Below are positions 16,134 through 59,820 of a DNA stretch of 64,000 nucleotides, in pieces (within the stretch, counting starts at the first letter, position 1; each line of letters starts with the position of its first letter). Below the pieces are notes generated by a model. That model did no database searches, had not been told where the DNA came from, and saw only the letters and a list, made by a program, of their open reading frames with translations. The position numbers and the translations under genes were made by a program. Source of the DNA: Halorarum halobium. GTDB lineage: Archaea; Halobacteriota; Halobacteria; Halobacteriales; Haloferacaceae. The stretch lies in contig NZ_CP134949.1 of the NCBI RefSeq assembly GCF_032116555.1, positions 1,736,001 to 1,800,000 of the forward strand, in the 5' to 3' direction.

Positions 16134-17441
16134 TCAGGTCGACCCGTCTTCGACGCTCACCGTCACCGTTCCAGCCCCCTGGCTGGCGTCCGCCGATTCG
16201 ACGAACGACTCGTCGCCGAGGTACGCGACGACCGTCTCCGCGCCGACCCGCTCCGTCCTGATCGGTCCCTCGCCGGGTCGGGCCTTCCGCCACTCCGCGA
16301 ACGCCGCCTCGAACTCCGTCGCGTTCGCCCGGTCCTCGAACGTCAGCGCCCAGGCGTAGCCGACGGTCCGGCCGCTCGCGGACGTGTCCCTGAACGCGAC
16401 GCGGCGGTCGCCGGCCCAGCCGTCGGCGCCCCACGCGGCGACGGATTCGTTCATCGGGCTCCCGAGCACGACGCGGACGAACAGTTCGCCGAACGAATCC
16501 CGACTCCCCGGAACGACCTCCCAGCCGTCACCGTCCCTCGAGGCCACGTCCGGGTTCTCGACCGGCTCGCTGCCCGGCTCCGCGCCGTGGATCAGCTCCT
16601 CGGTCGTCCGGGGCGGATCGCGGTAGATCTCCCGGGTCTCCGCGGGCGAGTCGACGCGGCGGTCCGCGTAGCGAGCGCCGAAGTAGTAGGGAGCGAGGCC
16701 GAACCGAACCGCGCCGCTGCCGTTCCGGTAGCGCTCGCCCATCGTTCGGATCGGCATCGCGTTGTCGGAGCCGTACCGCTCGGCGTAGGCCGACTCCGTG
16801 TACGTGGCGATCCCCTCGGTGATGCTGCGCTGGACCAGCGAGTCGTCGGTCGTGGGCCGGCCCGCGAGGACGCCTTCGGACGTCCGTCGGAACGCCCCGG
16901 TCCGGTACTGGACGACGTGGACCGACTCGTGGGCGAGCGTCCGCTCGGTGTCGCCGGTCCGGTTGAGGATGAGCCGGTTCACCGTCACCGTCTCGGGGCC
17001 GGAAACGTAGGCGGCGGCCGTCAGTGCGCGGTCCCGGTCCTCGGGAATCCTGATGCCGAGGAGCCGGTAGAACTCGGGGTAGCGGCTCGTCCCGATCCCC
17101 ATCCGCGCGTTCGGCTCGATCACCACTTCCTCGGGCGGGGCGGTGTCCGTCCGGTTCACCATGACCGTCACCCGCGCGTGGACGAGCGAGTAGTCCACCG
17201 GAAGCACACCGCCCTCAGTCTCGATGTCGTATGTGTCCGCGAGCGACCGGGGTGCCGGGGTCGCGTCCGGCTTCGTCGGCGTCGTCACCGTGGTCGCGTT
17301 CGGGGCTGGCGTTTCCGTCCGGTCGACGCCCGACGGGGCCCCGGCGCCGTCGGCGAGCGGTCCCGACGGACCGACCGAGCCGCCCGCGCCACAGCCCGCC
17401 AGGACGAGGAGAAGCGCGACGAGGACCGTGGTCGATCGCAT
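16134..17441 (-). CDS. Surface lipoprotein with a gluzincin-type metallopeptidase motif
   Basis: Signal peptide with lipobox LAGC, Thr/Pro linker, LAHESVH followed by ITEGIATY. Confidence 0.75.
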   Translation of the reverse strand: MRSTTVLVALLLVLAGCGAGGSVGPSGPLADGAGAPSGVDRTETPAPNATTVTTPTKPDATPAPRSLADTYDIETEGGVLPVDYSLVHARVTVMVNRTDTAPPEEVVIEPNARMGIGTSRYPEFYRLLGIRIPEDRDRALTAAAYVSGPETVTVNRLILNRTGDTERTLAHESVHVVQYRTGAFRRTSEGVLAGRPTTDDSLVQRSITEGIATYTESAYAERYGSDNAMPIRTMGERYRNGSGAVRFGLAPYYFGARYADRRVDSPAETREIYRDPPRTTEELIHGAEPGSEPVENPDVASRDGDGWEVVPGSRDSFGELFVRVVLGSPMNESVAAWGADGWAGDRRVAFRDTSASGRTVGYAWALTFEDRANATEFEAAFAEWRKARPGEGPIRTERVGAETVVAYLGDESFVESADASQGAGTVTVSVEDGST

Positions 17442-24421: not shown

Positions 24422-24517
24422 GAGCCGACCGGCCAGTTCGACGCCATATGTCGGGCGATTTCCGGCTTCGTGATCGGAACGATGGCTTTTCGGAGTCCCC
24501 TCGTTCAGTCCGAGGAC

Positions 24518-25231
24518 ATGTACGTGGTCATCGTCGGTGCCGGCAACATCGGCACGCCGCTCATCGAACTCGCGGTCGACGGCGGGAACGAGGTCGTCGT
24601 CGTCGAACGGGACCAGGAAAAGGCGGAGGCCGCCGCCGCCGAGTTCGACTGTCTGGTCATCAACGACGACGCGACGACGCGGGACGTCCTCGAGGACGCG
24701 GGCGCGGAGCGTGCCGATGCGCTGGTCTCCACGACCGACCACGACGCTACGAACATCATGGTGTGCCTGCTCGGGAAGGAACTCGAGGTGCCCGAGATCG
24801 TCTCGGTCGTCCACGACGAACGACACATGGCGCTGTTCCGTCGGATCGGCGTGAACACCATGGAGAACCCGCAGCGACTCATCGCGGAGTACCTCTACCG
24901 GGCGGTCAAGCGTCCCTCCATCGTCGACTACATGCGGGTCGGACAGGAGGCCGAGGTGTTCGAGATCCGCGTGGCCGAGGACGCTCCGATCGCGGGCGAA
25001 ACGATGGAGGAGGCCCGGGACGCCGGCCACATCACGGACGACATGCTCGTCGTCGCCATCGAGCGCGACGGCGGTGCAGATCCCATCACCCCCCGGGGAG
25101 GAACGAGGGCGCTTCCCGGCGACCTCTGTACGGTGTTCTCCGGACGGGGAGCCACCCCGGAGGTGACGGACGTGTTCGGCCACTTCGAGGCGAACGCCGA
25201 TCGTGGCCCCAACGGCGGCGGGGCGACGTGA
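24518..25231 (+). CDS. trkA: Trk/Ktr potassium-uptake NAD-binding subunit (short, one RCK-N/RCK-C pair)
   Basis: VIVGAGNIG, DAGAERAD; TrkA-C domain; directly upstream of a trkH. Confidence 0.9.
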   Translation: MYVVIVGAGNIGTPLIELAVDGGNEVVVVERDQEKAEAAAAEFDCLVINDDATTRDVLEDAGAERADALVSTTDHDATNIMVCLLGKELEVPEIVSVVHDERHMALFRRIGVNTMENPQRLIAEYLYRAVKRPSIVDYMRVGQEAEVFEIRVAEDAPIAGETMEEARDAGHITDDMLVVAIERDGGADPITPRGGTRALPGDLCTVFSGRGATPEVTDVFGHFEANADRGPNGGGAT

Positions 25232-25232
25232 G

Positions 25233-26885
25233 ATGAGTCGCCGTCGGACGGTCGCGGGAGTGCCGGCGGACCTCGCGATCGTCGCCAGGGACGTGGGCTC
25301 GCTGCTGGTGATGCAGGCGACGATGATGACGGTCACCGTCGTCCTGGCGCTCGCGTTCCGCGAGTTCTACCAGGCGTTCGCGTTCCTGCTGGCCGGCGGA
25401 CTGACGGTCACCGTCGGGTTCGGGGCGCGCATGACCTTCGCCGACGCCCCGGCACCGCGGATGAAACACGGCATGGTCATCGCCGCCACGGGGTGGTTCT
25501 GTACGGCCCTGTTCGGCGCGCTCCCGTTCCTGCTTTCGGCGTTCGTCACGCCGTCGGCCGTCGCCGCGTCGTTCGTTCCCCAGGGGGCCCAGTACGCGGA
25601 GTCGAGCCTCCGCTACTTTCGAGACCCGCTCCACGCGCTGTTCGAGTCGATGTCGGGGTGGACGGGGTCCGGCCTCACGATGGCAATCCACGAACCGTCG
25701 CTCCCGCGGACGCTGCTCTGGTGGCGGTCGTTCATCCAGTGGGTCGGCGGCGTGGGCGTCATCGTCCTCACGGTGTCCGTCCTCGCTCGACCGGGGAGCG
25801 GGAGCTACGCGCTCTACAGGAGCGAGGCCCGCGAGAAGCGGATCCACCCGAGCATCATCTCGACCGTCAGGACGCTCTGGAAGATATTCCTCGGGTACAC
25901 GTTCGTCTCGGTCCTCGCCCTGTTCGTCGCCATCAGGACGAGCGACTACGGCTCGTCGCTCCCCCTCGTCGAGGCGGCATGGCAGGCGCTCAACCACGCC
26001 ATGACCGGGCTCTCCACCGGCGGCTTCTCCGTCACGGACGACTCCATCGCCACGTACGACTCCCCGCTCATCGAGGCCGTCCTGCTGCCGGTGATGACGG
26101 TCGGTGCAATCGCGTTTCCGGTCCACTACGGCGTCCTCCGGAACCGGGACCTCACCCGCCTGGCCGACGACCTACAGACTCGCTGGCTGTTCCTCCTGCT
26201 CGGAGCGGGATCGGCGCTCCTCGTCGCTCAAAACGTCTCGGCGCTCGAGTACGCGAGCGGGGCGTTCGGCGCGACCGACTGGCTCGGCATCGGGTCGCTG
26301 ATCGGCCCGACCGCCGCGGACGCTGCCAGGGACAGCGCGTTCCAGTTCGTCAGCGCGCTCACCTGTACGGGGTTCCAGTCGTCTTCGATCGGCGAGTGGA
26401 GCGCTGGCGGCAAGCTCGTCGTCTCCTGTGCGATGGTCGTCGGCGGCGCGGCGGGGTCGACGGTCGGCGGCATCAAGATCATCCGCGCGTACACAATCGG
26501 CCGCGGCATCGTCTGGCAGTTCGGGCGCGTGTTCCTCCCCGCGAACGCGGTGGTCACCGCCGACATCGGTGACCGGACCCTCGACCGGAACGAGATGAAC
26601 CGCGAGTTCGCCGAGGCGGCCATCGTCTCGCTCCTCTGGGTGATTCTGCTCGTCGTCTCGTCGTTCGTCCTGACGAACGTCGTTGGCCCCTCCTTCGGCT
26701 ACGAGGACGCGCTGTTTGAGGTCGCCTCCGCGCAGGGGAACGTCGGCCTCTCGACGGGTATCACCGGTCCGGCGATGCCACCGCTCGCCGAAGCCATGTT
26801 CCTGTTGAACATGTGGGTCGGTCGCCTGGAGATCATCCCGGTGCTCGTGTTCGGGCGCTCGCTACTGTTCGGGATGGACCCGTAA
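25233..26885 (+). CDS. trkH: Trk potassium-uptake membrane subunit
   Basis: Pore motifs FESMSGWTGSG, STGGF, TCTGF, GGAAGSTVGGIK, SAQGNVG, GRLEI. Confidence 0.92.
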   Translation: MSRRRTVAGVPADLAIVARDVGSLLVMQATMMTVTVVLALAFREFYQAFAFLLAGGLTVTVGFGARMTFADAPAPRMKHGMVIAATGWFCTALFGALPFLLSAFVTPSAVAASFVPQGAQYAESSLRYFRDPLHALFESMSGWTGSGLTMAIHEPSLPRTLLWWRSFIQWVGGVGVIVLTVSVLARPGSGSYALYRSEAREKRIHPSIISTVRTLWKIFLGYTFVSVLALFVAIRTSDYGSSLPLVEAAWQALNHAMTGLSTGGFSVTDDSIATYDSPLIEAVLLPVMTVGAIAFPVHYGVLRNRDLTRLADDLQTRWLFLLLGAGSALLVAQNVSALEYASGAFGATDWLGIGSLIGPTAADAARDSAFQFVSALTCTGFQSSSIGEWSAGGKLVVSCAMVVGGAAGSTVGGIKIIRAYTIGRGIVWQFGRVFLPANAVVTADIGDRTLDRNEMNREFAEAAIVSLLWVILLVVSSFVLTNVVGPSFGYEDALFEVASAQGNVGLSTGITGPAMPPLAEAMFLLNMWVGRLEIIPVLVFGRSLLFGMDP

Positions 26886-26889
26886 CCCG

Positions 26890-27079
26890 AACTGACTGGA
26901 CGGTTTCACATCACTTATGTACTCCCGCTACCCGAAGTGAGAATAGTGTATAGAGAGTCGTTATTCGGTGTTTTCTGACTACATCCAGTTCGAGCGAAGT
27001 TTTCAATTTCATTCACCGTTCGAATTTACAGGAACATTTAGGTAAATATTCATCGCAATCGCACCGGGAATGAAACGTC
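26890..27079 (+). promoter_or_regulatory. AT-rich putative promoter region of the small peptide gene
   Basis: Markedly lower GC than the flanks; A/T-rich tttaggtaaatatt about 30-45 nt upstream of ATG 27080. Confidence 0.5.
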
Positions 27080-27211
27080 ATGTCCGACAACCCGGTCAAG
27101 ACGTACCTCGCACAGCACCCGAAAGCCTGCGGCGCAGTGTTCATGATGACGATGCTGCTCGCCAGCGCCGGTAACGGCGCGGCGACCGCGGCGGCGATCA
27201 ACGGTCCGTAA
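27080..27211 (+). CDS. 43-aa signal-peptide-like small protein MSDNPVKTYLAQHPKACGAVFMMTMLLASAGNGAATAAAINGP
   Basis: Translated by hand (ATG 27080, TAA 27209-27211); GC-rich third codon positions; hydrophobic core; resembles a recalled family of short haloarchaeal YL..HP.....LF...LLL...GP peptides. Confidence 0.75.
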   Translation: MSDNPVKTYLAQHPKACGAVFMMTMLLASAGNGAATAAAINGP

Positions 27212-29278
27212 TCAGAGTTCTTCGAAGTTCAGTTCGTCGGACCACACCAGTTCGAAATCGACCAGCAGCGGCGTCCGCTGTTGTGTGGTCGCCTCCTCGA
27301 GTCGCTCGCGTGAGATGGTCAGCGACGGCGGGACGCTTCCCGCGAGATAGTGGGTACCTTCGTCGGTGAAGAAGTCGACGAACAGGCTCCCGACCCCGTA
27401 GTTCCGCGTCGTGTAGGCCCGATGTACGATCCGGAACGAGTCGGCTCCGGGCTTTTCCCTGGACTTGAGTTCGACGAGCGTCGGCGTGCCGCTCCCTGCC
27501 TGACACAGCGTCACCCCCGCGTCGCCCACGACCGAGTACGCGCCGCCGACGACGTGGACCTTTCGTACCACGTCGAGCACGCCGTGGAGGTCGAAGCCGT
27601 AGTCGAGCAGGCGCGCCATCGTCCGGCCGGCGTTGGTCGCCATGATGTTCCCGACGTCGGTGGTCGTCACGAGCCCGCCGATGCTGCCCGCGCGGACGAG
27701 CTCCATCCCCTGTGCGTAGGAGGTGCAGGCGTTCAGGAGGAACGCCTTCACGCCCGTCGTCTCCAGGGTGTGGAGGTCGAGGTAGCCGTCCGCACACTTC
27801 ATGCCGTCCGCGTCGACGTGGCCGACGAAGTGGAAGAAGTCGTGATCGTCCGCGAGCAGGGAGCGGAGCTGTTCGCGCGAGCGGTCGTAGGCGATGTCGA
27901 TGTCGAACTCGAGGTAGTCGCGGAAGCCGTACAGCTGCTCGGTCTCCTCGCGCATCTCGTCCTCGTTGCAGACCACCTGAACGTCGATGACGTGTGACTC
28001 GGAGGCGGGCTGGTCGATGCGCCGTCGATACGAGCCCACCGTGGGCTTGGACGCCCCGACCGGATAGCCGTCCCCGACCCAGGTGTGACCGACCGTGTCG
28101 ACCGGCTCCGGGGTGACGACCGTCTCGTCCTCGAACGCCGACGCCGGAGTCTCGCCGCCGCAGGAAGCCGCTTCGTTCTCGTCGGACCGGTAGAGCCCAC
28201 CCAGCGATTCCGCGCCGTCCGCCCCGGCGGCCGACGCTGTCGCCGGGTCCCTGATCGCGGACAGGTCGTTGACCACGAACGGGAGCAGTTCGGCGCTCCC
28301 GGGCTCGGCGGCGACGTCGGCGGTCAGGTGCCAGTCGAGCACTCCCGAGAGCGGGTCGGTCGGGACATCGAAATACCGGGCGAGCCGCTCGTCGACCGGC
28401 AACTCGTACAGCGCGGCCGCGTCGATGTCGACCCGGGACTCGACCGTGGCGCGCTCGTGCAGGTCGACGTCGTAGAACCCTTCGGTGCGGACCGCACAGT
28501 CGAGGAGGAACACGTGTTCGAGGAGCGCCTGAGCGGCGTCGGCGAGCCGCCCGTCCGCAAGCGAGTGGGACGCCCCGGCCGCGGTGACCCGCGGCCGGTC
28601 GCCGGGCACCACGGTCGCACCGAGGTAGTAGGCCAGCGTCGACACGGTGTAGACCGACCCCCACTCCGCCGGCACCTCGATGGTGACGCCCGTGTCGGGC
28701 GGACCGGCGAACGAGGGGACCTCGCGCTCGTCGTCGAACGCGACCAGCGGCGGGTGGCCACGAAGCGTCGGGAACGACCGCTCCGGGGAGGTCGTCGCCA
28801 GCGCCGACCCGAACGTCGAAACCGCGTCCATCAGCCCGCGGGGGGATTCGGGGACGGTGACCGTGCCCGCCGGCCGGCCGTGGAACGAGCGCGCGCCGAC
28901 CCGGACGGTCCGATGCTCCTCGAAGCGAAGGCTGGTCCTCCCGGCCTCGCTACCCACCTCGAACGGGCCGTCGAGCCGGAGGTACAGCTTCATCGGCGCG
29001 GAGGACACCTCTAGCTCGTACTCGCCCGCCCCCACCGACGTCTCCCCGCCCGGCGGACAGGAGTCGACGAGTTCGTCGTCGCGCCGGACGTAGACGGCGA
29101 CCGGTTTCCGGAACGCGACGTGGTCGGTTCCGAAGGAGACGGCCGAATCGACCGGGAAGACGAACCCGTCGGTCCCGACGCCGTCGGTTGCCGCGCCCGC
29201 GGTGTCGACGCGAAACACGACGTCCTCGATGTCGTCACGAACGAGGAGGTCGTCCCCGTCGCGCGCGAATCGGATCAC
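27212..29278 (-). CDS. Large (~690 aa) uncharacterised protein with a C-terminal CHAT/caspase-like (clan CD) domain
   Basis: Long acidic ORF; FFHFVGHVDADG and AFLLNACTSY resemble the CHAT HxxGH/xLxAC dyad motifs; start uncertain (GTG 29278 or ATG 29341). Confidence 0.7.
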   Translation of the reverse strand: MIRFARDGDDLLVRDDIEDVVFRVDTAGAATDGVGTDGFVFPVDSAVSFGTDHVAFRKPVAVYVRRDDELVDSCPPGGETSVGAGEYELEVSSAPMKLYLRLDGPFEVGSEAGRTSLRFEEHRTVRVGARSFHGRPAGTVTVPESPRGLMDAVSTFGSALATTSPERSFPTLRGHPPLVAFDDEREVPSFAGPPDTGVTIEVPAEWGSVYTVSTLAYYLGATVVPGDRPRVTAAGASHSLADGRLADAAQALLEHVFLLDCAVRTEGFYDVDLHERATVESRVDIDAAALYELPVDERLARYFDVPTDPLSGVLDWHLTADVAAEPGSAELLPFVVNDLSAIRDPATASAAGADGAESLGGLYRSDENEAASCGGETPASAFEDETVVTPEPVDTVGHTWVGDGYPVGASKPTVGSYRRRIDQPASESHVIDVQVVCNEDEMREETEQLYGFRDYLEFDIDIAYDRSREQLRSLLADDHDFFHFVGHVDADGMKCADGYLDLHTLETTGVKAFLLNACTSYAQGMELVRAGSIGGLVTTTDVGNIMATNAGRTMARLLDYGFDLHGVLDVVRKVHVVGGAYSVVGDAGVTLCQAGSGTPTLVELKSREKPGADSFRIVHRAYTTRNYGVGSLFVDFFTDEGTHYLAGSVPPSLTISRERLEEATTQQRTPLLVDFELVWSDELNFEEL

Positions 29279-29430
29279 CCGCTCGGCTCCCCTTCCGCAG
29301 GGCACGTTCGGCCGGCGTCCGGAGAACCATCGTCCCCCCATCGTCGGTTCATTTTCGCGTCTTTCCCTTTCCGAGACCCGACTAAAGCATTACGTGCCAG
29401 CTATCAGACCGGGGAGTTCGCCGATTCTCC

Positions 29431-31071
29431 TCAGCGACGCCAGAACTCCGGGGTGAGACAGGCCAGCACCGGGATGATCTCGAGCCGACCGATCCACATC
29501 AACGCGACCATCAACACCTTCCCGAACTCCGAGAAGGACCGATAGCTTCCCATCGGCCCCAGGACGCCAAAGCCCGGCCCGACGTTGCCGAGCGTCGCGG
29601 CGACCGCGCTCATCGCCTCCAGCACCGTCAGCCCCTGCCCGACCCGGACGGTGTCGAAAAACAGCACTAGCGTCCCGACGAAGAACAGCACGACGTACAG
29701 CAGCGTGAACGAGAAGATGCCCCGGATCGCCCGCTCGTCGAGCGGCTGCCCGTTCAGCCGGACCGGCCTGACGGCTTGCGGGTGGGCGGTCGTGAACAGC
29801 TCACGGCGGACGGTCTTCAGGATGACGTACCAGCGGACGACCTTCACGGCCCCGCCGGTCGACCCCGCGGAGCCGCCGATGAACATCCCGAACAACAGCG
29901 TGTACTGGAGGGGCTGGCTCCAGGTGTTGAAGTCGATGCTCGCGTAGCCGGTCGTGGTGACGATGGAAACCACCTGAAACAGCGCGTGCCGGATCGCCGG
30001 TTCGACGCTGCCGTCGACGGTACCGACGGTGTTCTGCAGGTACGCCGCCCCGTAGGTGGCACTCGCCGGCGAGGTCCCGACGAAGCCGGCACCGGCGAAC
30101 AGCAGTCCCGCGACGATCGCGGTCAGCGCACCCATGACGCCGAGGTAGACGTGCCACTCCTGGTCGTCGAGGAGTCGGTCGAAGTCGCCGGTCAGCGCGT
30201 GCCAGAACAGCGCGAAGTTCGTCCCCGCCGCGACCATGAACGGGATGATGACCCACTGGACCGCGGCCGAGAACGCCTCGATCGATCGCGCCTCCGGCGA
30301 GAACCCGCCGGTCGGCATCGTCGTGAGCCCGTGGGCGACGGCGTTGTACAGGCCCATGTTCGGCGCGAGGCCGGGGGTCCCGAATAGGGGGCCGGCAACG
30401 TGGAGCCCGTAGAGCAGACAGATCTCCAGCAGCGTGAACCCCATGTACGCGCCCCAGAGCGCCCGCGCGGTCTCGGCGATTCGCGGGGTCAGCTTCTCGA
30501 TCCCCGGACCGGGCGCCTCCGCGTCCATCAGCTGTGCGCCGCCGACGGACAGTTCCGGGAGGATCGCCACCGCGAGCACGACGATGCCCATCCCGCCGAG
30601 CCACTGGGTCAGCTGCCGCCAGAGCATGATCCCGCGGGTGTGCGTCTCGAAGGAGATGTCGCCGAGGACGGTCGCACCGGTGGTGGTGAACCCGGACATC
30701 GACTCGAACAGCGCGTTCACCGGGTTGGCGAGCGTCGAGTCGGGGTTGATCGGCGCGACGAGCCCCGGGACGCCGTAGGCCTCCACGAGATACGGCACCG
30801 CGCCCACGACGGCGACCGTGAGCCAGGTGAGCGCGACCATCAACAGCCCCTCGCGCGCGCCGATGTCGGGGTCTGGGTCGAGCCGTTCGAGCGCCGTCCC
30901 GAGCGTCGCCGCGAGGAGAATCGTGACGACGAACGGCGCGACCGGCTCGTCGTAGTAGACCGAAACGAACAGCGGCACGAGCAGCGGGATCGAGAGGTAG
31001 CGGAGAACCGTGCCCAGGAGGCTCAGGCTGGCCCGGTACCGAACCGTGAGCGACCACCCGTTTCGGGACAT
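29431..31071 (-). CDS. trkH: Trk potassium-uptake membrane subunit
   Basis: FESMSGFTTTGAT, QWLGGMG, TGGFS, TTTGY, GGSAGSTGG, GNVGPG, GRLEI. Confidence 0.93.
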   Translation of the reverse strand: MSRNGWSLTVRYRASLSLLGTVLRYLSIPLLVPLFVSVYYDEPVAPFVVTILLAATLGTALERLDPDPDIGAREGLLMVALTWLTVAVVGAVPYLVEAYGVPGLVAPINPDSTLANPVNALFESMSGFTTTGATVLGDISFETHTRGIMLWRQLTQWLGGMGIVVLAVAILPELSVGGAQLMDAEAPGPGIEKLTPRIAETARALWGAYMGFTLLEICLLYGLHVAGPLFGTPGLAPNMGLYNAVAHGLTTMPTGGFSPEARSIEAFSAAVQWVIIPFMVAAGTNFALFWHALTGDFDRLLDDQEWHVYLGVMGALTAIVAGLLFAGAGFVGTSPASATYGAAYLQNTVGTVDGSVEPAIRHALFQVVSIVTTTGYASIDFNTWSQPLQYTLLFGMFIGGSAGSTGGAVKVVRWYVILKTVRRELFTTAHPQAVRPVRLNGQPLDERAIRGIFSFTLLYVVLFFVGTLVLFFDTVRVGQGLTVLEAMSAVAATLGNVGPGFGVLGPMGSYRSFSEFGKVLMVALMWIGRLEIIPVLACLTPEFWRR

Positions 31072-31170
31072 ACACGCTGGCACTCCAGTCGACCGTAAGA
31101 AGGCCTCGCTTTCGGGACAGCGGCCCCGTGTGTCCCGGTTTCCGTGCTCGAACCCGAACCAGTCGGCCGA

Positions 31171-32673
31171 TCAGGACCGCCAGTACGCCGGCGTGAGCAG
31201 CACGAGCACCGGGACGATCTCCAGCCGGCCGACCCACATCAGGACCGTCATCAGCAGCTTCGACGACCGGGGGAACGGGGCGTAGCTGTCGAACGGGCCC
31301 GCCAGGCCGAACGCCGGCCCGATGTTGAGGAACGTCGAGGCGGCGGCACCGAGCGCCTCGAACTCCGAGAGCGCGAGGCCGACGCGGGCCGCGTCGACGA
31401 CGAGCAGTACCGCCCCCAGGAAGAAGCCGACGATCACCAGCAGCGTGTACGCGTAGATGTCCTGGACGGCCTCCTCGTCGACCGGCCGCCCGCTCAGCCT
31501 GACCGGCCGGACCGCTTCCGGGTGGACGGTCGTGTAGAGGTCACGACGGAACGCGCGGAGGATGACGAGCCAGCGGAGCGCCTTCACCGAGCAGGTCGTG
31601 CTGCCGGCCATCCCGCCGACGAACATCAGCATGAAGAGGACGTGCTTGGCCGAGGCGGGCCAGACGGTGTAATCGAGCGTCGCGTAGCCGGTCGTGGTGA
31701 CGATCGAGACCACCTGGAACGCGGAGTGGCGGAGCGTCTCCTCCCCGAGCGGGCCGTTCCCGGGCGTGACGAGCAGCAACGCGAACACCAGCGCTGACGC
31801 GCCCGCGAGCACGGCGACGTAGAAGCGGAACTCGTCGCTTCGTCGGATCCGGGAGCGGTCGCCACCGAGCAGGTGATACAGCAGGACGAAGTTCGTCGCA
31901 CCGACGGTCATCACCAGCACGAACGCCCACTGGACGGCCGGCGAGAACGCGCCGGCGCTGTCGGGCCGCGGCGAGAACCCGCTGGTCGAGATGGAGGTGA
32001 ACGCGTGTGCGACCGCGTCGTAGGGGGTCATCTCGGGTGCCAGCCCCGAGACCCGCAACGCGAGCAACAGCCCGACGGTACCGACGGTGAGCAGGACGTA
32101 TAGCCCCCAGATGATGCGGGCGGTGTCGATGAGTCTCGGCGTGAGCTTGTTGACGTCCTCGAGCTGGGATTCGGTCTCCATGAGCTGTGCGCCGCCGACG
32201 CCGAGCGTCGCCAGCACCGCCGTCGCGAGCGCGAGGATGCCCAGCCCGCCGAGCCACTGGAGGAGCGAACGCCAGAGCAGCAGCGACCGCGGCTGTGCGC
32301 CGAAGTCGACGACGACCGTCGCGCCCGTCGTCGTGATGCCGCTCATCGACTCGAACAGCGCGTACTCGGGCCGTGCGATCGCTCCCGCGCCGCCGAGCAC
32401 GAACGGGACCGCGCCGACCAGCGCGATGGCGAGCCACACGAGCGACACCGCGAGGTACGCCTCGCGGGGCCCGACGTTCTCCGCGTCCCAGCGACCGATT
32501 CGCTCCAGGGACAGCCCGACGGCGAGCGAAACGGCGGCGGCCGCGAGGAACGGCCCGAGCGCCTCGTCGTACCAGAGCGCCGCGACGACCGGAACGGCCA
32601 GCGCGAGCGTGAGCCAGCGGAGCACGCGGCCCAGGATGCCGGCGCTGACCCGCCAGTCGACGCGGAGACTCAC
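31171..32673 (-). CDS. trkH: Trk potassium-uptake membrane subunit
   Basis: FESMSGITTTGAT, STSGFS, TTTGY, NIGP, GRLEI; GTG start overlaps the trkA stop. Confidence 0.92.
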   Translation of the reverse strand: MSLRVDWRVSAGILGRVLRWLTLALAVPVVAALWYDEALGPFLAAAAVSLAVGLSLERIGRWDAENVGPREAYLAVSLVWLAIALVGAVPFVLGGAGAIARPEYALFESMSGITTTGATVVVDFGAQPRSLLLWRSLLQWLGGLGILALATAVLATLGVGGAQLMETESQLEDVNKLTPRLIDTARIIWGLYVLLTVGTVGLLLALRVSGLAPEMTPYDAVAHAFTSISTSGFSPRPDSAGAFSPAVQWAFVLVMTVGATNFVLLYHLLGGDRSRIRRSDEFRFYVAVLAGASALVFALLLVTPGNGPLGEETLRHSAFQVVSIVTTTGYATLDYTVWPASAKHVLFMLMFVGGMAGSTTCSVKALRWLVILRAFRRDLYTTVHPEAVRPVRLSGRPVDEEAVQDIYAYTLLVIVGFFLGAVLLVVDAARVGLALSEFEALGAAASTFLNIGPAFGLAGPFDSYAPFPRSSKLLMTVLMWVGRLEIVPVLVLLTPAYWRS

Positions 32674-34007
32674 AGCCGGGCGGTCAGCCCTTCGGCGACG
32701 TCCGCGGGGGCGAAGGCGACGACGTGGTCGCCCGCCTCGATGACGGTGTCACCGCGGGGGGTGACGAACGCCCCGTTTCGCGTGATCGCCCCGAACACCA
32801 CCCGCTCGGGGAGGTCCGCGACCGAATCGAGGATCGTCCGTCCCGCGAGGGGGCTGTCCTCGCCCACCTCGATCTCGATGACCTCGGCCTTGTCCGACTC
32901 GATGAGCGCGACGTTCTCCGCGGTCCCCTCGCGGGTGAACCGCGTGATCTCCTCGGCGACGACCGCCCGCGGGCTGATGGCGACGTCGACGCCGACCGTC
33001 TCGAACAGGTCGATGTACGGGTCGCTGTCGACGATCGACACCGTTCGCCCGACGCCGAGTCGCTTCGAGAGCAGGCAGGCGAGCAGGTTCTTCTCGTCGG
33101 AGTCGAGGGTGCTGACGAGCACGTCGGCGTCCGCGATGTGCTCCCGTTCCAGAAAGTCCACGTCGGTCGCGTCCGACTGGAGCACGACCGCGTTCGGCAG
33201 GTCCTCGGCGAGTTCCCGCGCCCTGTCGGCGTCCTGCTCGATGTACCGGACCGAGACGTCCCGCTCCTCGAACAGCCGCGCGACGTGGTAGCCGACCTCC
33301 GAGCCCCCGACGACGACCACCTCGTTCACCTCGTCCTGCTCGTCGATGCTGGCGACCGTCGAGGCGAACTCGCGGACGCTTCCGGGGCTCCCGATGACGA
33401 CGAGGCGGTCCTCGCCCTCGATCACCGTCTCGCCGGTCGGGATGATGACCGCGTCCTCACGCAACAGCGCCGCGAAGGTGAGCGAGTCGAAGCGGTCCGC
33501 CTCCGCGACCGTCTGGCCGGCGACGTCGCTGTCGGGCGCGACCTCGAACTCGGCCATCTGCACCTTCCCGCCCGCGAAGGGGTCGACGTCGAGCGCGCCC
33601 GGCAGGCCGACGACCCGGACGATCGACTGGGCCGTCAGCAGGTTCGTACAGACCATGAAGTCGATGCCGAACGCCGTGTTCGACCGCCGCCAGGTCTTCA
33701 GGTACTCGGTCTTCTTCACGCGCGCGATGGTGAACGCCTCGCTGATCGCTTTCACCGTCGAACAGGCGACGATGTTCGTCTCGTCGTCGTCGGTCGAGGC
33801 GATCACCATGTCCGCGTCGGCCACGCCCGCCTCCTCGAGCGTGTCGACGGAGGTGCCGTCCCCGTTGATGGTCAACACGTCGAGGCCGTAGGTGAGTTCC
33901 TCACAGCGCTCCGGGTCCTCCTCGACGACGATGACCTCGTTGGACTCGTCGAGATCAGCCGCGATGGACTCGCCGACCTGCCCCGCGCCGATGATGACGA
34001 CCCGCAC
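32670..34007 (-). CDS. trkA: Trk potassium-uptake protein TrkA (full length, two RCK pairs)
   Basis: Two Rossmann motifs (IIGAGQVG, VVGGSEVG) each followed by a TrkA-C domain; GTG start chosen. Confidence 0.93.
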   Translation of the reverse strand: MRVVIIGAGQVGESIAADLDESNEVIVVEEDPERCEELTYGLDVLTINGDGTSVDTLEEAGVADADMVIASTDDDETNIVACSTVKAISEAFTIARVKKTEYLKTWRRSNTAFGIDFMVCTNLLTAQSIVRVVGLPGALDVDPFAGGKVQMAEFEVAPDSDVAGQTVAEADRFDSLTFAALLREDAVIIPTGETVIEGEDRLVVIGSPGSVREFASTVASIDEQDEVNEVVVVGGSEVGYHVARLFEERDVSVRYIEQDADRARELAEDLPNAVVLQSDATDVDFLEREHIADADVLVSTLDSDEKNLLACLLSKRLGVGRTVSIVDSDPYIDLFETVGVDVAISPRAVVAEEITRFTREGTAENVALIESDKAEVIEIEVGEDSPLAGRTILDSVADLPERVVFGAITRNGAFVTPRGDTVIEAGDHVVAFAPADVAEGLTARL

Positions 34008-34112
34008 TAGGCGCACACCCCGTTCATTGTGTGGCCCCACAGTCGGGGGCGGTATGAGGGTTCCGACCGACCGCGTGCCCGTGTGGCCCTCACCCGGCCG
34101 GTCACGTCGCCC

Positions 34113-55253: not shown

Positions 55254-56636
55254 TCAGTCCTCTGTCGCCATCGGACTGGTCGACGGTCCGGCGGCCGCGT
55301 CCGCGCCGTCGTCGCCGTACAGGTGGCACGCGACGTCCCTCGTTCCGGACGGCCGGCGGTCCGGGTGCTCCCGCTCACAGACCGTCGCGAGCACGTCGTC
55401 GAGGCCGTCGGCGGCAGCGACGGCGTCGCCGTCCATCGCGGTTTCCGCCGCCTCGAACATGGCGTCGCGGGCCGCCGTCGGGAGGTCGAGTTCCCGCAGC
55501 GAGACGTGGTGACCCCCCGTGCGTCGTTCGGTCTCCGTCTGGAACTCGTCCGGGACGTCCAGTGTCAGTCCGTGTTCGACGATCCGACGGGTCGGGTCGT
55601 CGGTCTCGGCCGCGAGCGTCTCCGCGTCGATGTCGCCACGGCGGAGCTTCAGCTTGAACTTGTGGGCCCGGCGGAACGCCTCCTGGCTGCCGGTCCAGTC
55701 GTCGGGCGGGATGACGTGTGCACACCGGGGGTTGTACCGGCAGGCGGACGGCGGGTTGCGGGGCGAGGGGACCTCGCCGGTCGCGTTCGCACGGCGGCGC
55801 TCGTCGCCGAGTTCCACGTCCGGGACGGCGTCGAACAGCGCCTCCGTGTACGGGTGTTTCGGGTCGTCGATGATGTCGTTCGTCGGCCCCTTCTCGACCA
55901 TGTCGCCCAGATACATGATGCCGGCGCGGTCGCACATGTAGCGGATGAGCGAGAGGTCGTGGCTGATGAACAGGTAGGTGAGGTCGTACTCGTCCTGCAG
56001 TTCCTTCATCAGGTTCAGGACGCCGGCGCGGATCGAGACGTCGAGCATCGACACCGGCTCGTCACAGACGATGAACTCGGGGTCGACGACGAGCGCACGG
56101 GCGATGGCGACCCGCTGGCGCTCGCCGCCGGAAAGTTCGTCCGGGAATGCGTCGAGGTACACCTCCGCGGGCGCGAGCCCAACGTCGTTGAGCACGTTCC
56201 GTACCCGCTCGCGTCGCTCCTCGTAGTCGTCGATGGTCCCGTTGATCTTCAGCGGCTCGGCGACCGTGTCGAAGACGGACATCCGCGGGTTGAGCGACTC
56301 GAACGGGTCCTGAAAGATCATCTGGACGCGCTCGCGGAACTCGGACTCCTCCCGGTTCGACATCTCCGTGATGTCGGTCCCGTCGAACCTGATCGAGCCC
56401 TCGTTCGGTTCGTACAGCTTCACCAGCAGCTTGCCGAGCGTCGTCTTGCCACAGCCCGACTCGCCGGCGATGCCGACGACGTCGCCCCGGTTGATGGTGA
56501 ACGACACGTTCTCGACCGCGCGAACCGGCCGTGGCTCGCGCCCCAGGATGGTGTCGACGACGCCCTGGGAGGTGTCGAACAGCTTGCTGACGTTCTCTAC
56601 TTCGACTAGCGGCTCTCGATCTCCTGCTCGGTCCAT
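55254..56636 (-). CDS. dppF: Peptide ABC transporter ATP-binding subunit
   Basis: GESGCGKTT, LSGGERQR, DEPVSMLD, HPYT, CRYNPRC..VACHL. Confidence 0.9.
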   Translation of the reverse strand: MDRAGDREPLVEVENVSKLFDTSQGVVDTILGREPRPVRAVENVSFTINRGDVVGIAGESGCGKTTLGKLLVKLYEPNEGSIRFDGTDITEMSNREESEFRERVQMIFQDPFESLNPRMSVFDTVAEPLKINGTIDDYEERRERVRNVLNDVGLAPAEVYLDAFPDELSGGERQRVAIARALVVDPEFIVCDEPVSMLDVSIRAGVLNLMKELQDEYDLTYLFISHDLSLIRYMCDRAGIMYLGDMVEKGPTNDIIDDPKHPYTEALFDAVPDVELGDERRRANATGEVPSPRNPPSACRYNPRCAHVIPPDDWTGSQEAFRRAHKFKLKLRRGDIDAETLAAETDDPTRRIVEHGLTLDVPDEFQTETERRTGGHHVSLRELDLPTAARDAMFEAAETAMDGDAVAAADGLDDVLATVCEREHPDRRPSGTRDVACHLYGDDGADAAAGPSTSPMATED

Positions 56637-57760
56637 GTGTTCTCCTGGGTGGCGTCGGTTCGGATCGTTTCGAGCTCGTCCACGCGGTAACACGCGGACC
56701 GGTGCGCGCGGTGGTCGGCCGCCTCGCGGCGGACGCCCTCCGAGGTCACCGACTCCACGTCGTACATCGGTGGGTGGCTCGTGTGACACTCCTCGACCGC
56801 GAACGGGCAGCGCTCCCGAAACCGACAGCCGTCTTCGGGGTCCCGCAGCGTCGGTGGCGTCCCCGGGATGGAGACGAGCGACTGGCTCTCCTCGGTGATC
56901 GTCGGGAACGAGTTCTTCAGCCCGAGCGTGTACGGGTTCGCGGTGTCGCCGAAGATGTCCGTCTTCGGCCCGCTCTCCATCACCTTCCCGCCGTACATGA
57001 CCGCCATCCGGTCACAGATCTCGGCCATCACCGAGATGTCGTGGCTGATGACGAGGATCGAGACGCCGAACTCCTCCTGCAACTTTTCGAGTTCCTCCAG
57101 GATGCGGTCCTGGATGATGACGTCGAGGGCGGTCGTCGGCTCGTCGGCGATGAGCAGGTCGGGCTCGCAGGCCATCGCCATGGCGATGACCGCCCGCTGT
57201 TTCATGCCGCCCGAGAACTCGTGGGCGTAGTCGTCCGCGCGGTCCGGCTCGATGCCGACCCGTTCGAGCAGGTCGCGGGCCCGCTCGTCAGCCTCGCGTT
57301 TGGACGTCCCCGGCTCGTGTCGGAGGATGGCCTCGACGATCTGATCGCCGACCTTGTAGACGGGGTTCAACGCGTTCATCGCGCTCTGTGGGATGAGCGC
57401 GATGTCGCGCCAGCGGACGTTCCGGATCTGCTCGGTCGTGAGGGCGGCCAGGTCCGTCTTGCCGTCCGCACGGACCGGATAGTCGTCGTCGATGATTTCC
57501 TGGCGCGCGTCGCCGGACTCGTCCTCCCACGAGGGGAGGGTGCCGTCGAACCACACCTCGCCGTTCTCGATGTAGCCGTTCGAATCCAGCAGGTGGACGA
57601 GGCTCTTGGCGAGCGTCGTCTTGCCGCAGCCGGACTCGCCGACCAGCCCGTACGTTTCGCCACGTTCCACGGAGAAGGAGACCTCGTCGGCCGCGTGGAC
57701 CGAGGAGTCCTCCTCCACCGCGTATCGGATCGAGAGATCGTTGACTTCCAGTAGTGTCAT
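56606..57760 (-). CDS. dppD: Peptide ABC transporter ATP-binding subunit
   Basis: GESGCGKTT, FSGGMKQR, DEPTTALD, CRFRERC. Confidence 0.9.
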   Translation of the reverse strand: MTLLEVNDLSIRYAVEEDSSVHAADEVSFSVERGETYGLVGESGCGKTTLAKSLVHLLDSNGYIENGEVWFDGTLPSWEDESGDARQEIIDDDYPVRADGKTDLAALTTEQIRNVRWRDIALIPQSAMNALNPVYKVGDQIVEAILRHEPGTSKREADERARDLLERVGIEPDRADDYAHEFSGGMKQRAVIAMAMACEPDLLIADEPTTALDVIIQDRILEELEKLQEEFGVSILVISHDISVMAEICDRMAVMYGGKVMESGPKTDIFGDTANPYTLGLKNSFPTITEESQSLVSIPGTPPTLRDPEDGCRFRERCPFAVEECHTSHPPMYDVESVTSEGVRREAADHRAHRSACYRVDELETIRTDATQENTWTEQEIESR

Positions 57761-58722
57761 GAGTCACGCTGTGGGTTGGTTACGTCCTCCATCGAGAAGC
57801 CGACGAAGTAGAAGGCGGTCGCCAGCAGCGTGATGGCGAGCCCCGGCGGGATGAGCCACCACCACGCGTCGAAGACGTACCCTTCCGCCTGGATGTTCTG
57901 CAGCATGATCCCCCACGAGTCCGCGGTGAAGTCCGCGAGCCCGAGGTACGCCAGCGACGCCTGCGCGATCACCGCGCCGGCAGCGTCGGAGGCCAGATAG
58001 ACGAACGACAGCGGCAGCACGCTCGGCATGATGTGTCTGAACATGATCCGGGTGTCGCTCGCGCCCGCAACCTTGGCCGACTCGACGAACGACCGCTCGC
58101 GGAGCGAGAGCGTCTCGCCGCGGATGACGATACAGTTGTTCAGCCACGACGTGACCGCGATGCCGATGATGATGTTCGTCGTGTTGATGCCCCGGACCGC
58201 GACCAGCACGATGAGGAACGGCAGGAACGGCAGGCCGTACATCACGTCGACGATGCGCTGGATCGTCTCGTCGATCCAGGTGTCGCCGTAGAAGCCGGAG
58301 ATGAGCCCCAGCGGCACGCCGACGAGACTGGAGAGCAGTCCGGCGGCGAGGCCGATGTACATCGCGGTGCTCGCCGAATGGACGACGAGCGTGAGGATGC
58401 CCTCGCCCGCCTGGTTCGTCCCCAGCGGGGCGAAGAACGGGTCCCCGAACGCCGGCGGGTGGGGGAGCGACCTGATCTGTTCGCCGGTCAGTCGCGCGTT
58501 GTGGGGTGGTTCTCCGAGGTAGGCGACCCACTCCAGCGAGTGGGGCGCGAACACGCCCGGGATGATGGACCACACCGCGTAGACGACGAGGATGACGAGC
58601 CCGATGACGCCCATCTTGTGCTCGGTGAACCGATCCCAGCTCCGTCGAAACCGCTCGATTCGCGGCTCCCATCGTCGCTTGAACGAGTCGAGGTTCGAAG
58701 TGTCCTGATTGTCCGTCGCCAT
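57757..58722 (-). CDS. dppC: Peptide ABC transporter permease
   Basis: PLGT; EAA loop FVESAKVAGA..RHIMP; WWWLIPPG. Confidence 0.9.
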   Translation of the reverse strand: MATDNQDTSNLDSFKRRWEPRIERFRRSWDRFTEHKMGVIGLVILVVYAVWSIIPGVFAPHSLEWVAYLGEPPHNARLTGEQIRSLPHPPAFGDPFFAPLGTNQAGEGILTLVVHSASTAMYIGLAAGLLSSLVGVPLGLISGFYGDTWIDETIQRIVDVMYGLPFLPFLIVLVAVRGINTTNIIIGIAVTSWLNNCIVIRGETLSLRERSFVESAKVAGASDTRIMFRHIMPSVLPLSFVYLASDAAGAVIAQASLAYLGLADFTADSWGIMLQNIQAEGYVFDAWWWLIPPGLAITLLATAFYFVGFSMEDVTNPQRDS

Positions 58723-58723
58723 G

Positions 58724-59713
58724 TTAATTGTTCTCACCGAATTTGATCCGCGGGTCGAGGTACGTGTAGACGACGTCAGTGAGCAGGCGCATGACGACGA
58801 CCAGTACCGCGATCATGAAGAACGCGGCCTGTGCGGTCGGGAAGTCCCGGCTCAACACCGCGCTGATGATGAGCGCTCCCATCCCCGGCCAGCTGAACAC
58901 CTGCTCTACGATCACCGAGCCGTCGATGAGGAACGCCAGGCTGACGATCGCGCCGGTGACGACCGGGATGAGCGCGTTGCGTGCGGCGTGTTTGATCATC
59001 ACCGTGCGCTCCGAGAGCCCCTTCGCGCGTGCGAGAAACACGTAGCCCTCGTCGGTCACATTGTTCATCGTCGGCCGCATCACGAGCATCGAGCCGACCC
59101 AGCCGATGAAGGTGAGACTCAACATCGGCAACGCCATGTGGTACAGCACGTCCCGCATGATCGTGAACGCCGTCCACTCGAACTCCGGATACTGCGTGAA
59201 CATGAACGCGCTCGGGAGCCAGTCGAGTTCGTAGTTGAACACCCAGATGAACAGCCAGGAGATCCAGAACGCGGGCATGGAGTAGACGAACAGCGAGCTA
59301 CTGAAGATGCCCTTGTCCTTGGTGCTCCCGCGCCACCAGCCGAGATACATCCCGACGAGCGGACCGATGACGAACCCGACGATGAACACCGAGCCGAACA
59401 GCACGATCGTCCGTGGCATGCGTCGGACGATGAGGCTCCACACCTCGGTGTTCTGGGTCGGGGACCGACCGAAGTTGCCGGTCTGGTAGTTGACCATGAA
59501 GTTGATGTACTGTTTCCAGAGAGGTTCGTTGAGGCCCCACTCCTGTCGGATTCGCTCGATCTGTTCGGCCGTCATCCCCGGCGTGATCATGCCCTGAATG
59601 AACGACCCGGGCATGCTCCGGAGCAGGACGAACAGCAGCGACATGATGACGAGGAGCGTCAGGTATGAGACGACGATCCGTTTCGCCAAGTACGTTCCAC
59701 TGATTCTAGTCAT
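58724..59713 (-). CDS. dppB: Peptide ABC transporter permease
   Basis: ARAKGLSERTVMIKHAARNA, EQVFSWPGMG, LDPRI. Confidence 0.92.
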   Translation of the reverse strand: MTRISGTYLAKRIVVSYLTLLVIMSLLFVLLRSMPGSFIQGMITPGMTAEQIERIRQEWGLNEPLWKQYINFMVNYQTGNFGRSPTQNTEVWSLIVRRMPRTIVLFGSVFIVGFVIGPLVGMYLGWWRGSTKDKGIFSSSLFVYSMPAFWISWLFIWVFNYELDWLPSAFMFTQYPEFEWTAFTIMRDVLYHMALPMLSLTFIGWVGSMLVMRPTMNNVTDEGYVFLARAKGLSERTVMIKHAARNALIPVVTGAIVSLAFLIDGSVIVEQVFSWPGMGALIISAVLSRDFPTAQAAFFMIAVLVVVMRLLTDVVYTYLDPRIKFGENN

Positions 59714-59820
59714 GCATTGTCAGACCGCGAGTGTGCGCGAACATCACCATGGACCGAATATGAATCTGTTGAATCGATGCCTCGAAAAGTCGAAAACCGG
59801 CCGGAAGCGGGGCTGTGAGG

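Follow-up and report, generated by a model that had tools for sequence, protein, structure and literature searches.

What could a haloarchaeal peptide of 43 residues do that consists of a signal-like leader and a few further residues ending in Gly-Pro? The open reading frame (ORF) that raises this question lies in Halorarum halobium, within the 64,000-nt stretch of contig NZ_CP134949.1 analyzed here (the window), where a first-pass annotation had described it as an unannotated prepeptide of pheromone-like design. We find that the ORF is one half of a cassette, the other half of which is a convergent gene for a clan CD protease, and we think it probable that the two genes form a signaling unit in which the peptide gates the protease.

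The prepeptide family and its convergent protease

The ORF encodes 43 amino acids followed by a stop codon, as first described, and its product matches the Pfam family DUF7503 (PF24335) with 50.5 bits against a gathering cut-off of 27, across profile positions 2–42 of 42. Together with the GC content at third codon positions (GC3; Table 1), this supports a real gene. The first-pass remark that short haloarchaeal proteins ending in GP exist as a domain of unknown function proved correct; "unannotated" was too strong a word, as the peptide is present in a gene-call collection and two near relatives carry the NCBI name "DUF7503 family protein." The Pfam entry gives no function. As a control for chance, 7689 ATG-to-stop stretches of 35–70 amino acids were collected from the genome. 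Of these, 414 are equally hydrophobic and only five also end in GP; three of the five are the peptides opposite the three protease paralogs described below.

DUF7503 was found in 121 of the 151 Halobacteria genomes sampled. One member from Haloferax has exactly the sequence of UniProt D4GX86, which is HVO_1270 of PMC10117724. That study lists HVO_1270 as a leaderless mRNA (Supplementary Table 5B), reports it as highly translated, with a mean translation efficiency of 22 by ribosome profiling (Ribo-seq), and as detected by mass spectrometry, and shows a 3xFLAG fusion under its own promoter on a western blot (legend of Supplementary Fig. 5). These three lines of evidence establish that the H. 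volcanii ortholog is translated. Positional enrichment across 122 peptide genes revealed an A/T-rich block resembling a B recognition element (BRE) and TATA box at about −40 to −27 from the ATG, and the corresponding block in the window is consistent with a leaderless mRNA for the peptide gene.

The n-, h- and c-regions of a signal sequence, recognized at first pass, are present (best 13-residue Kyte-Doolittle mean, 2.08). In an alignment of 124 distinct peptides, which includes three mis-anchored rows (L072, L106, L114), leader columns mostly have low entropy, core columns reach about 3 bits, and 109 sequences end in GP. The residue at position −1, at a fixed distance from an H-P-R/K motif, is Ala in 231 of 255 single-core precursors and Ala, Gly or Ser in 252. 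Such a preference for alanine or another small residue is characteristic of signal peptidase I sites. Judged by this sequence register, cleavage is predicted after Ala35, leaving the 8-mer TAAAINGP, which refines the 5–13 residues first estimated. The cut also coincides with the core boundary given by the multi-core precursors described below. Among the seven closest relatives, mean identity is 0.87 in the leader, 0.50 over residues 36–41 and 1.0 in the GP, and the 255 single-core peptide/protease pairs contain 238 distinct cores of 7–10 residues, mostly with a Gly-Pro end. Alignment of homologs, proposed earlier as a check, therefore shows a conserved leader and terminal GP around a core that is more variable than the leader.

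The likely receptor next door had been overlooked. In a subset of 113 peptides from the 162 DUF7503 matches, 111 have a protease gene convergent within 253 bp; of the two exceptions, one has it 992 bp away and one co-directional upstream, both within 1.5 kb. Gaps of −23 to +28 bp are commonest, and the stop codons abut or overlap in many loci. A converse survey started from the protease and used the 159 best loci among 977 confirmed matches, a choice that favors the main clade; here a peptide partner accompanies 136 of the 143 proteins that have at least 400 bp downstream. The protease is present in 121/121 genomes with DUF7503, and DUF7503 is present in 0/18 genomes lacking the protease. Because relatives are not independent, these counts are descriptive. 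Seven of the 12 protease-only genomes were inspected: a divergent partner is present in five and was not seen in two. The cassette occurs in 121–133 of the sampled genomes. The DUF7503 profile does not catch the long-core, multi-core and KR-type partners introduced below or those of family f20.

This genome itself encodes three protease paralogs, each opposite a signal-like peptide ending in GP, one of which was missed by Pfam. The second cassette (G000:C1:1222057-1224322, L033) has a DUF7504 gene upstream. In the third (C1:1598742-1600999, L034), a 61-amino-acid long-core peptide gene is divergent from tbsP and next to glyA. Elsewhere the cassette is duplicated (L046, L096), two identical peptide genes stand in tandem (L107, G015:C1:486534-486796), and one genome (G146, L135–L155) has about ten paralogs, most with their own long-core peptide.

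Outside haloarchaea, all four genomes of family f20 encode a full-length protease and a convergent 42–43-amino-acid signal-type peptide ending in FRGP; one locus has a gene inserted between the two, and one peptide is labeled Methanocellales archaeon by its source. The f20 leader matches the DUF7503 profile with 5% probability, so homology is not shown, and we group these peptides by position, design and GP end. Family f24 (9/10 genomes; L240–L248) carries degenerate protease homologs that lack one dyad motif and lie near dnaG and an rRNA operon; no peptide was seen with them. Orphan receptors occur often across the loci surveyed, but no orphan peptide was encountered, an asymmetry also known from Rap/Phr.

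The partner protease has no apparent signal or transmembrane segment, and an upstream ATG at 29341 would lengthen it from 688 to 709 amino acids. It gave no Pfam or NCBIfam match at E ≤ 1, no significant sequence match in the PDB (hmmsearch, 0) and no profile match above threshold to the named families CHAT (PF12770), C25 and C14; in the Atlas it is labeled "putative caspase family protein," with assignment to a CHAT cluster (0.79) as a lead, and an f20 homolog matches Peptidase_C25 weakly, below cut-off (E 0.003). Its AlphaFold2 model, built from 107 sequences, has a mean predicted local distance difference test (pLDDT) of 91.5 and shows an N-terminal beta domain, an alpha/beta-helical domain, a pseudo-caspase and a caspase domain, and a C-terminal beta domain; a single-sequence model of the N-terminal domain reached a pLDDT of 38. 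Residues ~316–632 match gingipain RgpB (VIA Z 19.6, root-mean-square deviation 3.1, 242 aligned residues). Further matches fall in the gingipain/separase group (17.7) and to separase (17.5), SAVED-CHAT (16.3) and DdvA (15.9), and Foldseek agrees. In a search with the whole model, which covered mainly residues 324–593, the 16 best-ranked VIA matches belong without exception to clan CD (Z 10.4–19.6).

The His-Cys dyad is intact in 297/297 peptide-partnered proteins vs. 46/68 unpartnered ones, the latter class including a few loci whose peptide lies more than 300 bp away or went unrecognized by the classifier (L064, L099, L220, L237, L398). Invariant acidic residues near the active site, Glu445 and Asp586, suggest that the protease would cut its target after Arg or Lys. 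The idea that long-core peptides face catalytically dead partners was rejected, as the alignment shows the dyad. At E ≤ 1e-30 the family falls into 700 clusters of 50% identity. In viral contigs, 129 pattern matches yielded no confirmed viral copy, and a BFVD search returned partial caspase-domain matches only.

In genus g24, tandem arrays of one to three dyad-intact proteases with no adjacent peptide lie beside a TRAM-domain gene (L044, L045, L047–L050) and are candidate eavesdropping receptors. Divergent paralogs without the dyad (L152, L168–L182, L223, L234, L235) include a subgroup that retains the predicted pocket motif, which suggests non-catalytic peptide binders.

Predicted binding of the core

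Modeled together, the window peptide and the window protease gave a complex score of 0.76, the best control scoring 0.00; the mark used is reached by 116/157 solved complexes and 2/215 mismatches, counts that are rough with the alignments used. Runs share at least 72% of contacts. The model was made from the uncut precursor, yet only residues 34–43, together with residue 15, are confidently placed. They contact protease residues 41–42, 70, 97, 166–172, 268–269, 596–600 and 619–669, and do not contact His487 or Cys518.

Covariation across 255 pairs (effective number 160), with a rough correction for phylogeny, gave a mean z of 0.66 for 24 interface columns, −0.02 for 404 other variable columns and 0.37 for 57 other columns of the C-terminal domain. 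The top covarying pairs join core position −5 with columns 598 and 631, −6 with 636, −7 with 600 and 633, and, at third rank, −4 with 632. Residues of the protease also follow the GP end: Arg130 is present in 206/206 GP-partnered proteins vs. 12/19 partnered with non-GP peptides, and Thr171 in 199/206 vs. 6/19, although this relaxation amounts to few events because most of the non-GP cases lie in one part of the tree. The core is very probably the cognate ligand of the neighboring protease.

Table 1. Features of the peptide/protease cassette in the window.
Feature	Position	Strand	Basis
Likely BRE/TATA of leaderless peptide-gene transcript	27041..27053	+	Inferred from family pattern
DUF7503 prepeptide gene, 43 aa	27080..27211	+	Translation, Pfam match, GC3 0.88
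Leader, residues 1–35: n-region with H-P-K/R motif, hydrophobic h-region, small-x-Ala site	27080..27184	+	Sec/signal-peptidase-like
Predicted mature core TAAAINGP, residues 36–43	27185..27208	+	Family register, multi-core boundary, complex model
Partner gene, 688-aa clan CD protease	27212..29278	−	Convergent, 0-bp gap to peptide stop
Protease residues 630–637, C-terminal beta-domain strand, predicted specificity surface	27368..27391	−	Lowest-error contacts to peptide 38–42
Catalytic Cys518	27725..27727	−	Dyad conservation; role assigned from clan CD fold
Catalytic His487	27818..27820	−	Dyad conservation; role assigned from clan CD fold
Protease residues 166–172, conserved motif predicted to hold peptide C-terminal end	28763..28783	−	Contacts to peptide 41–43

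Proposed mechanism, variant precursors and rival explanations

In the mechanism that we propose, the precursor would enter the Sec route and be cut after Ala35 by signal peptidase. The released core would be taken back into the cytoplasm, with a general Dpp/Opp importer, not linked to the cassette, as the probable route. There it would bind the caspase-fold protease in a pocket flanked by the N-terminal domains on one side and the C-terminal beta domain on the other, at a distance from the His-Cys dyad; this step is modeled and supported by covariation. Conserved residues would hold the GP end, and the variable middle would confer strain or species specificity. Binding would switch protease activity on or off allosterically, and the protease would cut a target. 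Overall, we lean toward the core being an exported signal between cells. The dpp/opp ATP-binding cassette operon noted at first pass is real and complete (window 55257–61863, minus strand); it lies 28 kb from the peptide and holds the sole dppA-like match in the genome with the query used. SBP_bac_5 is present in 5/5 genomes checked and in the window.

Some lineages depart from this design in the precursor. In genus g14 the protease occurs in 14/16 genomes; three proteases face a canonical precursor and 11 a leaderless multi-core protein, in which 2–14 copies of a nine-residue GN...SGP core are separated by xTAD or xNAD spacers. The multi-core protein occupies the canonical position, and the upstream region is recognizably similar in the two loci compared. 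Replacement of the leader by tandem cores marks the core as the functional unit. With six further multi-core loci from metagenomes, leaderless precursors with 2–16 repeats were seen at L186–L199, L356, L358, L360, L377, L386 and L394. The 13 cores of L186 all differ in DNA (mean identity 0.85) yet encode one peptide. Multi-core and canonical forms interleave on the protease tree (FastTree, midpoint root), a pattern that points to no single origin or direction of the change. A strong tetrapeptide-Asp cleavage activity reported from H. volcanii extracts (PMC3615174) is a possible route for release of the multi-core units; cutting of the xTAD spacers by the cassette's own protease was considered and rejected, since multi-core loci show nothing distinctive in their active-site columns.

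Other precursor classes have long acidic cores (12) or are hydrophilic ORFs ending in KR-[VI]-S-x-Y-x-GP (seven). The latter, KR-type ORFs (L137, L163–L165, L225, L251, L252), are 39–61 amino acids long with unconserved N-termini ahead of the conserved end; they face proteases of one clade, and cleavage after Arg is possible.

Several results weigh against an exported pheromone. The main one is the loss of Sec export in the variant precursors. The best 13-residue Kyte-Doolittle mean has a median of −0.34 in 21 multi-core and 0.93 in seven KR-type precursors, so that with little or no hydrophobic segment the Sec route as modeled is unusable for them, and the leaderless precursors that occupy the orthologous position suggest that some lineages can do without export. 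A tblastn search of 414 loci (2.75 Mb) found no relatives of dppA, dppB or dppC, and the DppD ATPase in three loci only, which gives no backing to a link between the dpp operon and the peptide. On the modeling side, the pLDDT of the peptide in the complex is low (46–54), so that its own fold is uncertain; core position −3 covaries best with column 132, outside the listed interface; and the model and the covariation test are independent of each other only in part.

H. volcanii adds further points on this side. In the genome that carries the HVO_1270 sequence (G028), the peptide gene is intact and the protease gene is frameshifted (L216:7390-9535), and HVO_1270 is highly translated in the Ribo-seq data of PMC10117724. 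HVO_1268 is probably the N-terminal protease fragment, judging by accession order, and appears in a proteomics table of PMC12240190; a second assembly provides a C-terminal fragment, and other H. volcanii strains encode 681–709 amino acids. The C-terminally FLAG-tagged HVO_1270 was seen apparently in cell extracts, according to the figure legend (PMC10117724), which shows some cell-associated, possibly uncut product. Finally, the disk-forming density signal of this species, described as heat-stable, ≤3 kDa, proteinase K-resistant and ethyl acetate-extractable (PMC12240190) and answered via a two-component system (PMC13464002), is, from its proteinase K resistance and extraction, probably something other than the peptide described here. 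The same species expresses HVO_1270, but with the protease gene frameshifted in that strain, and no link is shown.

The observations on tagged product and on leaderless multi-core and KR-type precursors, which persist opposite an intact protease, would also fit a cell-autonomous regulator, the strongest of the alternatives although we judge it unlikely. The peptide would then be a protease ligand acting inside the cell that makes it, as an anchored or cytoplasmic inhibitor or activator, antitoxin-like, or as an export monitor that Sec and signal peptidase normally remove and that gets to the protease solely upon failure of export or of the membrane. The near-neutral n-region of the leader, the lack of importer linkage among the loci and the origin of the complex model in the uncut precursor point the same way. 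This alternative is harder to reconcile with a small-x-Ala site kept at a fixed distance in nearly all single-core precursors. Core hypervariability with pocket covariation better fits self/non-self signaling, even if diversification is seen in toxin-antitoxin pairs as well, and at least 46 dyad-intact proteases without a detected adjacent peptide are awkward for an obligate inhibitor.

Legumain-type ligases and cyanobactin proteases cut or cyclize precursors, and a further possibility is that the protease matures the peptide in the manner of ribosomally synthesized and post-translationally modified peptides (RiPPs), with a product, such as a halocin or signal, that works elsewhere. Ligases and transamidases of the clan CD fold do occur among the structural matches, the dyad is always retained with a partner, and the multi-core spacers resemble both RiPP cassettes and caspase sites. 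Yet the core is modeled away from the dyad, no follower remains after the GP of single-core precursors, so that transpeptidative cyclization would have no leaving group, and the residue before the cut would be Ala in canonical but Asp in multi-core precursors even though active-site columns are alike and the two forms interleave on the tree. No tailoring enzymes or exporters recur among the neighbors of 116 loci, and we regard this route as improbable. That the ORF is simply a small membrane protein, its pairing reflecting shared transcription termination or antisense control, is very improbable: abutting stops and a hydrophobic leader that is the best conserved part would suit it, but the leader is lost while the core multiplies, the pairing survives an inserted gene (L064, L237), and the complex model and covariation speak against it.

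Neighboring genes and known systems

Three trkH and two trkA genes form a cluster (24470–34040) into which the window cassette intrudes; this context is common to only four loci, the window included, and is therefore incidental. The commonest neighbor across the 116 loci is DUF7504 (PF24336), which fills 44 neighbor slots, 30 of them directly upstream on the protease strand, and offers a lead to KaiC/RecA-like proteins; it is not at the window locus. The gene tbsP flanks loci on the long-core/KR side of the tree, including the third locus of this genome. A chromatin immunoprecipitation peak for TbsP lies at the HVO_1270 promoter, and the tbsP deletion gave a log fold change of 1.72 at a false discovery rate <0.06 (PMC11023807, Table 3). 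The TbsP motif of that study is not enriched upstream of peptide genes (19/122 at ≤2 mismatches vs. 7–26 in 30 shuffles), and the TbsP-like site upstream of the window peptide has four mismatches. By context, DUF7504 and TbsP are candidate effectors or substrates. Also in the window, a 435-amino-acid ORF (16134–17441, minus strand) has weak eCIS_core and DUF7537 matches below cut-off.

Archaeal quorum-sensing signals and receptors have been described as largely unidentified (PMC12240190), and haloarchaea as having no clear caspase homologs (PMC3615174). The cassette offers candidates for both signal and receptor, along with a predicted binding site and the exact sequence of an 8-mer. A frameshift in the protease gene of the common laboratory strain may be the reason why the cassette escaped notice; the gene is intact in other H. 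volcanii. If the pheromone reading is true, most haloarchaea and some methanogen-related lineages would possess a kin-specific proteolytic switch that governs a decision on development or death. Either the DUF7504 protein or TbsP could serve as its effector, and TbsP at the HVO_1270 promoter could close a feedback loop. We found no description of DUF7503 or of the peptide/protease pair in the literature searched (subscription papers and bioRxiv supplements lay outside its scope), nor a precedent for a short peptide gating a clan CD protease; by this comparison the cassette would be new at the level of receptor class, its signaling role being deduced.

The closest structural relatives of the protease are gingipains RgpB and Kgp (C25) and separase (C50), at 12–13% identity. 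Gingipains and separase are likewise controlled by a bound polypeptide, the prodomain and securin, respectively. Those inhibitors are sizeable and sit in the active site, whereas the 8-mer core is modeled at a remote site; gingipains are, moreover, secreted. The ligand-gated CHAT proteases, namely Csx29/TPR-CHAT (Craspase), SAVED-CHAT and DdvA, share the pseudo-caspase and caspase domains, the His-Cys dyad (Z 12.2–16.3) and a sensor domain outside the active site. Their triggers, as described, are target RNA or cyclic oligoadenylate in CRISPR or CBASS loci, whereas the predicted ligand here is a linked peptide, defense genes do not recur around the cassette, and the sensor is neither a tetratricopeptide repeat (TPR) domain nor SAVED.

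In its logic the cassette is closest to the RRNPP systems (Rap-Phr, PlcR-PapR, NprR-NprX, Rgg-SHP, AimR-AimP), from which the first-pass annotation had named Phr, PapR and SHP for comparison. It shares with them a small propeptide with a signal-like leader and short C-terminal core, an adjacent cytoplasmic receptor, pherotype-like diversity, orphan receptors and duplicated cores, the last with precedent in Bacillota (PMC11343458). Set against the five traits listed for RRNPP systems in PMC10075063, the propeptide of 43 amino acids falls within the 10–100 expected and the genes are adjacent, with a 0-bp convergent gap. Two traits differ: the receptor has 688 rather than 250–500 amino acids, and in place of TPRs its model shows beta and alpha/beta domains with no helical repeat array, the peptide docking on a beta strand. 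RRNPP propeptides also leave the cell by Sec and signal peptidase I, or by PptAB, and return through Opp/Dpp for a density-dependent response; here the h-region and conserved small-x-Ala site stand beside the leaderless variants, and the importer genes show no linkage to the cassette. A receptor that is a protease without TPRs places the peptide outside the Phr/PapR/SHP family, so that the pheromone-like design stands and RRNPP membership does not. The host is archaeal, the predicted output is proteolytic instead of DNA binding or phosphatase activity, and cores reach 14–16 copies with loss of the leader. We see an even chance that the cassette represents a third, archaeal class of peptide signaling, in which a secreted 7–10-mer pheromone of hundreds of pherotypes is re-imported to gate a cytoplasmic caspase-fold protease; with a logic like that of Rap-Phr built from unrelated parts, it would be an independent invention.
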